This document shows positions 22,364 to 24,589 of a stretch of DNA of 64,000 bases, piece by piece. A program made the translations under genes and the position numbers. How positions within the stretch are numbered: position 1 is the stretch's first letter; the number at the start of each line of letters is the position of its first letter. The notes under the pieces are model-generated. The model ran no database searches. It was given only the letters and a program-made list of their open reading frames with translations, and was not told the DNA's origin. Source of the stretch: Bacilli bacterium (GTDB lineage Bacteria; Bacillota_I; Bacilli_A; RF39; UBA660); contig JAEEMF010000026.1 in NCBI GenBank assembly GCA_016283075.1, positions 5,270 through 69,269 on the forward strand, in the 5' to 3' direction.

Positions 22364-24589
22364 ATGAAAGGAAATAAAAAAGAAATTATTAGCAAAATAA
22401 CTAATGTTGTACTTGATATTTTACTAGTTGTTTTCGCATTTATTTTGCTTATTTCAATTTACAAAAACATTCAAGTTAAAGTACTAGGAAAGAGTTATGC
22501 GGACTTCTTTGGGATTTCAGTATTTGAAGTTCAAACAGGTTCTATGACAGGTACAATAGGTATTAGTGATTGGATTATTGTTAAACAATCAGATAATATT
22601 GAAGTAAATGATATTATTACATTTAAGAAAGATAATGACTTTATAACTCATAGAGTAGTAGAAAAGTATAAAGGTACTTATATTACTAAGGGTGATGCTA
22701 ATAGTGCTAAAGATGATCCTATTAGTAAAGAACAAATAGTAGGTAAAGTAGTAAAGATTATTCCTAAATTTGGAATTGTAAAAAGAACTTTATTTAATCC
22801 AATAGTACTTCTACTTCTTATAATCACAGTATACTTATTTAACTTCACATTTAAGAAGAAAAATAATGATGCTGCAATACCGAATAATAAATTAGATATC
22901 TTAGTAGATAAACTTCTTGATAGAATCATTAATAAGATAGATGAAGAAAATAAAGTTAAAAATGAAAAGAAAGCTTTAAAAGCTAATAAGATTGTTAAGG
23001 TAGAAGAAGTTAAGAAAGAAGAAAAAGAAGAAAAGGTTGATCCTCTAGAAGCGATGCTAGAAGATGAAAAAGAAGAAACTTCTGAAATAGATAAACCTAC
23101 TATTGAAGAAATAGTAGAAAGCAAAGAAGTTATTGAAGAACCTAAAGAAGAAATGAAAGTTGAAGTTGAAAGTGTTCAAATAAATACTCCAATGCAACCA
23201 ATATCAGAAAGTGAAGCTAAAGCTTTACATGAACAACTTGATAGTATGGAAGATGGAGAAGAAGTAACAGTAGAAGACTTAGGTAAGACTATGACTTTTA
23301 GAGCAATTAGTGTTGACCTTGATGATTTATCTAGAACTTTTGAAGCAATAAGCCGTAATGAAGAACTTACTGCTAATCAAGAAAAGATAAAAGAAATGAT
23401 AAAAGAAAGTGAACCTGAGGAAGATAAAGAACCAAAAGATGATTCTATTATCAAAGGTAAACTTGATATGTTATCTAAGAAAGATAAAAGGAAATTTAGT
23501 AATGTTCTAGATAGAACTATGTATCTTAAATCAAAAGAACTAGAAGAAATAATAGAAATACTAAATGATGAAAAGAAACTACTTCCTAATGAAGCTACAA
23601 TCGAAGATAATTTCATTAAGATATATATTGATGCTAAATACTATAATCACTGTGGTAATAGTAATGCTGATTATAATAATAAAAATATGGTATCTAAATT
23701 AACTAAATTACTTTTAGAAGAAGCTGCTAATATGACTAATAGTTATAATGGTAACGATAAAGGATATAGTAATAAAGTTAATAAATATGCCAATATGTTT
23801 ATTACAGTATTACAACTAGAACAAGCATTTAATACATATGATGCTATAGATGATCTTAGAACTGAATATTTAAAAGTACTTGATAAAACATTTAGAAAGA
23901 GAAGCTATATTCCAAGAAGACAATTTGAAATAATAAATAGTATTATTAAAGTAGAAAGAAGCTATAGATCAATGATTAACTATATACTAAAGAAAGTTAA
24001 TACAGAAATGTTTGAAATAGTATATAGTCCACTAAGTTCAAATAGAAAACTTGTAGCAACAAGTTTAAAACATAATATTGAATTTAGTAAAGTTTATAGT
24101 GATTATATAATTGATAAGACTTATACTGAAGGTATAGTTGCAGAAGATAAAGTAATGGTTATGTTAACACTACTTACTTCTAAAATAACATCTGATATAT
24201 TAGACTATGATTTTTCTAAGAAATATATACTATATGTCCCTGGAACACTATATAGTAAAGATAATAAAGTTGCTCAGTTAATGAGAGTAATGAATAATGA
24301 TTTCTTAAAAGATAATATATTTATACTATGTCAGTATGAAGATTTAATGGAAAATAAAAAGGTTATAAAAAATCTTAAAAAGGTTGGCTTTAGATTTGCT
24401 TTATCTTTAGATGAAGCAGTAAAAATTAATGATAAAGATCATCCAATGATTAATATTATGGATTATATCTTTATTAATAAGAGTAAATTTGATACAGCAA
24501 ATATTATTCCAAATCTTCCTGAGGAAGCAGCAGTGCATGTAATAAGTGAAGATATAGGAAGTAAAGTAGGTAATTTTGGTGGTGAATAA
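22364..24589 (+). CDS. SipW-type signal peptidase I domain (aa ~1-150, intact Ser/His/Asp boxes) fused to a long acidic coiled-coil linker and a ~450-aa C-terminal cytoplasmic domain
   Basis: 'QTGSMTGT' (Ser box), 'ITHRVV' (His box) and 'TKGDANSAKDDP' (Asp box), with two TM helices. This is followed by a KEEKEEK-rich linker and a C-terminal region ('VGFRFALSLDEAV...DYIFINKSKF') faintly reminiscent of a degenerate EAL-type fold. Confidence 0.6.
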   Translation: MKGNKKEIISKITNVVLDILLVVFAFILLISIYKNIQVKVLGKSYADFFGISVFEVQTGSMTGTIGISDWIIVKQSDNIEVNDIITFKKDNDFITHRVVEKYKGTYITKGDANSAKDDPISKEQIVGKVVKIIPKFGIVKRTLFNPIVLLLLIITVYLFNFTFKKKNNDAAIPNNKLDILVDKLLDRIINKIDEENKVKNEKKALKANKIVKVEEVKKEEKEEKVDPLEAMLEDEKEETSEIDKPTIEEIVESKEVIEEPKEEMKVEVESVQINTPMQPISESEAKALHEQLDSMEDGEEVTVEDLGKTMTFRAISVDLDDLSRTFEAISRNEELTANQEKIKEMIKESEPEEDKEPKDDSIIKGKLDMLSKKDKRKFSNVLDRTMYLKSKELEEIIEILNDEKKLLPNEATIEDNFIKIYIDAKYYNHCGNSNADYNNKNMVSKLTKLLLEEAANMTNSYNGNDKGYSNKVNKYANMFITVLQLEQAFNTYDAIDDLRTEYLKVLDKTFRKRSYIPRRQFEIINSIIKVERSYRSMINYILKKVNTEMFEIVYSPLSSNRKLVATSLKHNIEFSKVYSDYIIDKTYTEGIVAEDKVMVMLTLLTSKITSDILDYDFSKKYILYVPGTLYSKDNKVAQLMRVMNNDFLKDNIFILCQYEDLMENKKVIKNLKKVGFRFALSLDEAVKINDKDHPMINIMDYIFINKSKFDTANIIPNLPEEAAVHVISEDIGSKVGNFGGE

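Follow-up and report, generated by a model that had tools for sequence, protein, structure and literature searches.

An S26B signal peptidase fused to a module with an EAL-like fold in a CoCoPALM-type locus of uncultured Bacilli

The usual view of signal peptidases is that of constitutive enzymes of ~180 amino acids (aa) that are not regulated. Here we describe a 741-aa protein in which an S26B (SipW/Sec11-type) signal peptidase domain is followed by a long, predicted cytoplasmic extension ending in a domain with an EAL-like fold. The gene lies in a 64,000-nucleotide stretch of DNA (hereafter the window) from the Bacilli bacterium assembly GCA_016283075.1 (contig JAEEMF010000026.1, forward-strand positions 5,270 to 69,269). 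Among proteins of related fold, LapD and FimX are degenerate EAL proteins, of which the first controls the protease LapG in the periplasm and the second acts via PilZ on the pilus ATPase PilB; YdiV is an EAL-like protein that serves purely as a protein-binding adaptor (for FlhD). Among signal peptidases the closest described case is SipW of Bacillus subtilis. Its substrate TasA has Phe at P2', and an aromatic P2' residue is described as making TasA a SipW-specific substrate (PMC10269814); SipW itself has been reported to be 'bifunctional' (Terra et al. 2012, cited in PMC4551309). At the level of the whole locus, Bell et al. (2024, eLife; PMC11090510, section 7) described NxD-type McrB GTPases that form a large clade and carry a fused FtsB-like transmembrane (TM) segment and coiled coil, and named the corresponding systems CoCoPALM; that section gives them a short paragraph and defers their analysis to a forthcoming publication.

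The window locus fits the CoCoPALM type. Its McrB-like GTPase has an N-terminal TM segment and a helical extension (FtsB-like in the CoCoPALM description), and is accompanied by a DUF2357 McrC homolog with no detectable nuclease and by signal-peptidase-family proteins, in a member of the Bacillota. The GTPase signature 'GTINNDDST' is invariant in three orthologs and is ambiguous: INNDD fits NxD followed by D/E and, in an ungapped HMMER alignment to the 'MNTAD' of Escherichia coli McrB, fits NxxD too. The CoCoPALM paragraph of Bell et al. differs in that it mentions neither a fused peptidase, nor an EAL-like domain, nor a module that is a constant third component, and in the literature that we searched neither the fused peptidase nor the EAL-fold module is described, nor did a later CoCoPALM paper turn up. 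What is new here is thus a conserved and unusual architecture within a type of system that had been named but not analyzed.

The locus resembles tapA-sipW-tasA in that a dedicated S26B peptidase is encoded among its putative substrates, and in the aromatic P2' residue of these substrates. However, B. subtilis SipW has ~190 aa and a short tail whereas the window fusion has ~575 extra, predicted cytoplasmic residues that include folded domains; moreover, the window locus has three S26B paralogs and a GTPase pair, and its substrates are not detectably of the TasA family by sequence. With eukaryotic and archaeal Sec11 the fusion shares the Ser-His-Asp S26B core, and human SEC11C (E 3e-5) and SEC11A (E 7e-5), to both of which the catalytic boxes align, are the best sequence matches in a PDB profile search with the fusion family. 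Sec11 uses separate non-catalytic subunits, whereas the window locus supplies a pseudo-peptidase paralog and a fused cytoplasmic module. The likeness to LapD, FimX and YdiV would lie in an EAL fold without catalysis, through which a cytoplasmic signal is linked to a protease, a pilus NTPase or a protein partner. Unlike these proteins, the window domain has no GGDEF partner and no sequence-level EAL signature, its barrel is shorter, and it follows a novel helical bundle and is covalently joined to a protease.

The peptidase domain of the fusion has the profile, motif and TM features of the family. Residues 16-158 match NCBIfam TIGR02228 (sigpep_I_arch) with 60.2 bits, above the curated cutoff of 51.85; the score against Pfam Peptidase_S24 (22.8) is slightly under the threshold of 23.3. 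A reading made from the sequence alone, which preceded this work (hereafter the sequence-only reading), had claimed a complete catalytic N-terminal domain; its open frame at 22364-24589 is present as given, and the GSM (residues 59-61), THRV (95-98) and GDAN (110-113) boxes that it named are indeed there. Across 45 aligned sequences there is no variation at S60, M61, R97, D111, N113 or D117, and H96 has at least 90% conservation; all three boxes occur in 111 of the 118 long homologs. The two TM segments of that reading are found both by hydropathy (~7-41 and ~136-165) and in a full-length AlphaFold2 (AF2) model, where helices 4-39 and 146-164 lie around a β-rich domain (51-133) with predicted local distance difference test (pLDDT) scores of 80-90. 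Since the N-terminal side of the first TM segment is Lys-rich and FKKKNN directly follows the second, the positive-inside rule predicts that the N-terminus is inside, the catalytic domain outside and the C-terminus inside, as for SipW. The domain is therefore predicted, on its conserved residues, to be an intact and catalytically competent S26B enzyme that cleaves signal peptides.

Is the fusion itself real? The window, which also matches contig JAEEGJ010003643.1 of GCA_016295205.1, has a G+C content of ~26%, and at this composition an open frame of 2.2 kb far exceeds chance. A search with residues 167-741 alone returned 231 proteins or protein clusters; among the 120 of these that were listed, nearly all have 620-820 aa and most carry a precomputed PF00717 assignment, and the few source-named relatives are called simply "signal peptidase I". 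In a genome scan that took one genome per species, 139 species genomes had a relative. Eighty of the loci were fetched, and in these tblastn places the peptidase domain 750-1300 nt upstream of the C-terminal domain wherever there is enough upstream sequence. Orthologs thus keep the fusion, and its retention in 139 species genomes rules out a frameshift or assembly artefact. The genomes are metagenome-assembled genomes (MAGs) from uncultured gut, rumen or digester organisms labeled Bacilli, Bacillales, Mollicutes, Tenericutes, Erysipelotrichaceae or Thomasclavelia. Many MAGs with this low-GC, Bacilli-type cluster (L031, L045, L046, L051 and others) are labeled 'uncultured Muribaculaceae' and one is labeled 'Ignavibacteriales'; wrong taxonomic labels or errors of binning in the public records are the probable cause.

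The peptidase domain is joined to the rest of the protein by a poorly conserved linker (21% Glu, net charge -27) that contains 'KKEEKEEK'. Its length is variable, it is gapped in the alignment, and AF2 gives pLDDT <50 over most of residues 210-317. The acidic, KEEKEEK-rich stretch had been noted before as a coiled coil; the composition is as described, but a genuine coiled coil was rejected on the low AF2 confidence there, and the model points to a disordered tether. One short motif in the linker, KTMTFRAISVD, is an island of conservation: T309, R313, V317 and D318 are invariant or nearly so in the 45-sequence alignment, and the consensus occurs in 115 of the 118 long homologs in one to three copies, with more copies where the linker is longer. 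It is a putative docking-type motif.

Beyond the linker, AF2 modeling of residues 360-741 from an 84-sequence alignment gave a mean pLDDT of 85.7 and a predicted template modeling score (pTM) of 0.85. The modeled module consists of a seven-helix bundle (~366-545), for which no informative structural neighbor was found, and an alternating β/α domain (~546-741). The extension is thus more than low-complexity sequence, as residues ~366-741 fold confidently.

For this extension, Pfam, NCBIfam, PADLOC and PDB profile searches of the fusion return nothing beyond the peptidase domain; in particular there is no Pfam match to PF00563 (EAL) at E<=0.1 and no EAL chain at E<=1 in the PDB profile search. 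Structural comparison of the β/α domain, in contrast to these profile searches, found an EAL-type, TIM-like fold with ~165-175 of ~250 residues aligned, i.e. a shorter barrel, and its top neighbors include the degenerate EAL proteins LapD, FimX and YdiV/RflP. We also used hhalign to compare the C-terminal domain family (fused members, then a set widened with free-standing members) with seven EAL domains taken from E. coli NC_000913. The alignments are colinear strand by strand and non-significant, with probabilities of 3.9% and 1.1%, and for this reason the EAL assignment is one of fold. The 'faint' EAL/TIM-barrel likeness seen by the sequence-only reading in the terminal region (strings 'KKVGFRFALSLDEAV' and 'DYIFINKSKF', both present) was therefore right at the level of fold and not of sequence.

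In the low-confidence hhalign mapping, the Glu of the EAL motif falls on S566 (unconserved), the β3 Asn on V625/P626, ExxE on unconserved residues, DDFG(T)G on 'SL', the Lys of KxD on the 'F' of "DYIF", and EGVE on 'SEDI'. Hydrolysis of cyclic di-GMP (c-di-GMP) by this domain would be very unlikely. The residues that are conserved are others, namely F550, H570, N571, Y578, S579, E594, D595, Y621, K632, K635, G675 and F678, of which H570 and N571 are conserved within the fused clade and the remainder family-wide; this set argues for a conserved binding surface, which we predict. The domain would widen the known range of degenerate EALs to a lineage and context that sequence methods miss entirely.

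The gene downstream of the fusion encodes the McrB-like GTPase. It starts 2 nt after the fusion stop codon (the two genes overlap by 4 nt in L001, L002 and L096) and adjoins the fusion gene in 79 of the 80 loci, the sole exception being at a contig end. Residues 212-382 match E. coli McrB (6hz4) with E 0.008, and the protein matches the PADLOC candidate family PDC-M26A with 2e-38; the charged helical stretch that follows the TM segment was read off the sequence. The gene for the McrC-like protein is adjacent to that for the GTPase in all loci with enough flank; in this protein no nuclease domain was detected with Pfam, and it has no PDB sequence match. As a separate observation, residues 1-50 of the GTPase (24592-24750, + strand; MNTFFRFFYEFISIFFDG...), which precede the TM segment, are aromatic-rich and amphipathic, and are invariant at many positions in three orthologs with 66-71% overall identity. 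They might form a helix lying in the plane of the membrane or serve in interactions, a feature absent from the CoCoPALM description.

Is the module an accessory of the peptidase, or does it belong to the GTPase pair? A profile of the C-terminal module was searched against 1.84 billion representatives and found 388 proteins at E<=1e-3. The best 150 of the 388 comprise 66 peptidase fusions, ~35 free-standing proteins of ~320-350 aa that contain the whole module, five long forms with no detectable peptidase domain, and 44 fragments. In all four unfused contexts examined (L091, L092, L094 and L096) the module gene is immediately upstream of a McrB-like gene (product 52-61% identical to that of the window) and a DUF2357 gene. 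The module is therefore the third constant component of the McrB-like/McrC-like pair, not a peptidase accessory, and it may be free (~330 aa), TM-anchored or peptidase-fused. In L092 and L094 a separate ~190-aa peptidase, 41-49% identical to the N-terminal domain of the fusion and distinct from the ortholog of the 189-aa SipW protein, is encoded a few genes upstream. Since the unfused module has this separate peptidase nearby, the window fusion appears to be a lineage-specific joining of two neighboring genes of one system, and it can be taken as Rosetta-stone evidence suggesting that peptidase, module and GTPase act together.

The TM-anchored form is represented by P0215 and P0206 (loci L096 and L097), in which N-terminal hydrophobic, TM-like segments lead directly into the linker and module with no peptidase domain between; we read this as a deletion of the peptidase domain. 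Because lineages with this deletion have kept a membrane anchor, membrane tethering of the module would be the conserved requirement and catalytic coupling an elaboration. The linker of P0215 and P0206 carries a degenerate 'DKTRLLSRIELD' motif, and the 390-aa gene that precedes the module gene in L096 contains a pseudo-peptidase homolog. The three-protein core (module, GTPase and activator), with its natural fused and unfused variants, offers a handle on CoCoPALM function.

What would the peptidase cleave? The genes for a large secreted protein and three small proteins are followed by those for the fusion, the McrB-like, McrC-like and SipW proteins, a 410-aa protein and, on the minus strand, a 209-aa protein. 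L001-L003 and the 80 loci as a whole keep this arrangement; in L001 the cluster is flanked by the housekeeping genes tyrS, rpsD and ezrA. At least seven secreted proteins are encoded, each with one N-terminal hydrophobic segment that ends in [ST][YL][AS]-x-[FYL]; a small residue at -1 and an aromatic one at P2' recall TasA. Their signal peptides end (predicted cleavage sites shown by a slash) in SLA/RF, TYS/IF, SYA/KY, TLA/WF, TYS/RY, SYA/WF and TYA/WL. From these signal sequences we infer that the proteins are putative SipW-type substrates, namely fiber or pilus subunits together with a large tip or adhesin protein; the label 'fiber or pilus' was chosen because of the signal-peptide motif, size and synteny.

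We think it probable, with some reserve, that the fusion ties the processing of the fiber subunits encoded by the locus to a cytoplasmic GTPase machine. In this mechanism Sec would export the subunits, and uncleaved signal peptides would keep them tethered to the membrane until SipW-type cleavage freed them for polymerization into a fiber or pilus. The flexible tether would put the active peptidase at a complex of the membrane-anchored GTPase and its McrC-like activator, and the nucleotide state of this complex, or a ligand in the EAL-like pocket, would set where and when subunits are released. The logic would be inside-out, by analogy with LapD-LapG or FimX-PilZ-PilB. The original interpretation, that a peptidase is coupled to a cytoplasmic domain, gains support here and is extended by the S26B assignment, the structural EAL relative and the CoCoPALM-type locus. 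That a peptidase is hard-wired to an EAL-fold module and to a GTPase pair derived from McrBC suggests that the cell can control the cleavage of fiber or pilus subunits from inside, in space or time. The cluster is carried by uncultured gut and rumen Bacilli that are abundant and have small genomes, and such a surface structure may matter for their attachment to the host or community.

A bolder version, which we regard as possible and on balance doubtful, is that the module, McrB-like and McrC-like proteins together form a hitherto undescribed engine or switch in the cytoplasm that serves a Sec/SipW-dependent surface filament of Gram-positives. A restriction-enzyme motor would then have been repurposed for pilus assembly, with the fusion as its transmembrane output, possibly nucleotide-gated at the degenerate EAL pocket. 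If this is true, the protein would be the first signal peptidase for which an NTPase or second messenger in the cytoplasm sets activity or position.

Several points weigh against a fusion that ties subunit processing to the GTPase machine. The homology to EAL domains is structural (profile probability 1-4%), so that convergence on a TIM-like fold is possible, and as the EAL alignment is weak, confidence in the residue-by-residue loss of the EAL catalytic positions is moderate. The sampled flanks do not support a c-di-GMP input: tblastn found no GGDEF or EAL genes in 1.52 Mb (the window plus 90-odd loci), which covers a small fraction of each genome and so tells little about the genomes in full. 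The secreted proteins have no significant match to TasA/camelysin or to SipW-cognate signals in Pfam, NCBIfam or the PDB, leaving the fiber or pilus label without family support; the 185-aa protein comes under threshold with PF12389 (Peptidase_M73; E 0.051). The contacts of the module with the GTPase and McrC-like proteins, and with the peptidase domain, are predicted ones. Finally, the lineage of P0215 and P0206 dropped the peptidase domain and kept the TM segments and module, so catalytic coupling is dispensable there.

Other explanations assign the lead to a different part of the protein. The EAL-like domain might be a genuine receptor for a second messenger (c-di-GMP or another cyclic or linear dinucleotide), making the fusion a ligand-gated signal peptidase to which the GTPase pair is secondary. 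This would agree with the presence of the degenerate receptor EALs LapD and FimX among the best structural neighbors, and with a polar and aromatic patch (H570, N571, Y578, S579, E594, D595, K596, Y621, K632 and K635) that we map to the β2-α2/β3 region, the ligand site in EAL domains; it overlaps with the model favored above, and taken as the primary function we consider it unlikely. An active c-di-GMP phosphodiesterase as the C-terminal domain of the fusion is far less credible still: the fold would allow it, but the canonical motifs are replaced in the colinear, if weak, alignment, the barrel is shorter and PF00563 finds no match, and on these grounds we rejected it.

McrBC ancestry raises a different idea, that the McrB-like protein, the McrC-like protein and the module make up a system for phage defense or conflict (a derivative of Type IV restriction) residing in a surface-protein locus, with the peptidase as anchor or effector. 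The match of the 515-aa protein to PDC-M26A is in line with this, and in the part of their paper cited above Bell et al. set CoCoPALM beside the CoCoNuT defense systems. However, no nuclease or other toxic effector was detected, and PADLOC gives no match for the fusion, the McrC-like protein or the peptidases. Unlike patchy defense islands, moreover, the 12-13-gene cluster, with its seven secreted proteins and three S26B paralogs, is syntenic across 139 species, and in L001 it sits between housekeeping genes. We therefore judge a defense role quite improbable. The most skeptical explanation, that the fusion arose through faulty assembly or annotation, or that its extension is merely low-complexity sequence, has the acidic linker as its one support and is refuted by the conserved fusion and the confident fold of the module; we give it practically no credence. 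The features of the cluster are collected in Table 1.

Table 1. Coordinates (in the window) of the fusion gene, its domains and the other genes of the cluster
Feature	Position	Strand	Evidence or remarks
Upstream conserved part: paralogous secreted proteins (445 and 383 aa), 47-aa acidic peptide, 549-aa cytoplasmic helical protein	11381..15746	+	'S[ST]YAW[FL]' in the secreted pair
Three secreted proteins (1175, 185 and 294 aa)	16660..21641	+	N-terminal hydrophobic segment, then [ST][YL][AS]-x-[FY]
S26B-like pseudo-peptidase, 175 aa	21700..22227	+	Two TM segments; weak SipW match, alignment
Fusion open reading frame, 741 aa: S26B signal peptidase, acidic linker, helical domain, EAL-like domain	22364..24589	+	ATG start
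SipW/Sec11-type peptidase domain, residues 1-165	22364..22858	+	Profile match, conserved residues, hydropathy, AF2
Catalytic codon Ser60	22541-22543	+	
Catalytic codon His96	22649-22651	+	
Catalytic codon Asp111	22694-22696	+	
Catalytic codon Asp117	22712-22714	+	
Acidic, poorly conserved, predicted-disordered cytoplasmic linker, residues 166-365	22859..23458	+	Composition, AF2, alignment
Linker motif KTMTFRAISVD, residues 308-318	23285..23317	+	Consensus KTxx[FY]Rxx(x)VD
All-α bundle, residues 366-545	23459..23998	+	Conserved 'YIDAKYYN' (Y421, Y426, Y427)
Degenerate EAL-fold (TIM-like β/α) domain, residues 546-741	23999..24586	+	
McrB-like AAA+ GTPase, 515 aa	24592..26139	+	N-terminal TM ~50-86, charged helical stretch, Walker A GISGTGKT, sensor INNDD
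McrC-like protein, 380 aa (DUF2357 N-terminal domain)	26152..27294	+	PF09823, 37.6 bits against cutoff 23.3
Canonical SipW-type signal peptidase, 189 aa (second active paralog)	27305..27874	+	TIGR02228, 76.1 bits; Ser, His, distal Asp kept
Secreted proteins of 410 aa (+) and 209 aa (-), putative substrates	27906..29845	+ and -	Same N-terminal motif as the three secreted proteins

There are three S26B paralogs in the window, and likewise in related loci. The pseudo-peptidase has lost the catalytic Ser (GSM is replaced by NKI/DEI) and the His (THR is replaced by NKD/KRD), and its orthologs (L001:9320-9856 and L002:8120-8653) have done likewise; it is present also in loci with the unfused module. 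It may hold substrates or serve as a non-catalytic subunit, comparable to accessory subunits in the signal peptidase complex of eukaryotes.

The upstream conserved genes are also present in loci with the unfused module. In L096 the family of the 445- and 383-aa secreted proteins (11381-13949, + strand) has three tandem copies, and the 383-aa protein has an unusually long cytoplasmic N-terminus, an Arg/Lys-rich stretch of ~40 aa before the TM segment. The gene for the 47-aa peptide, which is highly acidic, overlaps the start of the gene for the helical 549-aa protein, which lacks a TM segment (13967-15746, + strand). Both are kept with the cluster, including in the distant loci L091 and L096, and are possibly further cytoplasmic components of the system; a comparison of the 549-aa protein with the PDB gave nothing useful.

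Between the 549- and 1175-aa genes lies a CYTH-domain gene (15928-16494, + strand; PF01928, E 1e-17) that has no counterpart in the 80 related loci and looks like an insertion specific to the window. Just downstream of the cluster is a MacB/FtsX-type ABC transporter pair (ABC_tran, then MacB_PCD plus FtsX; 31096-34354, + strand), which is not kept with the cluster elsewhere. The largest intergenic gap within the cluster, of 136 nt (22228-22363), separates the pseudo-peptidase gene from the fusion gene. The former is followed by an AT-rich hairpin (AAAAACTGATT-AAAA-ATCAGTTTTTTTTT) and a T-run, for which a terminator scan was negative because the stem has too few G-C pairs, and a GGGGTG ribosome-binding site precedes the ATG of the fusion. 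The fusion, GTPase, McrC-like and SipW genes may thus be transcribed apart from the upstream subunit genes.

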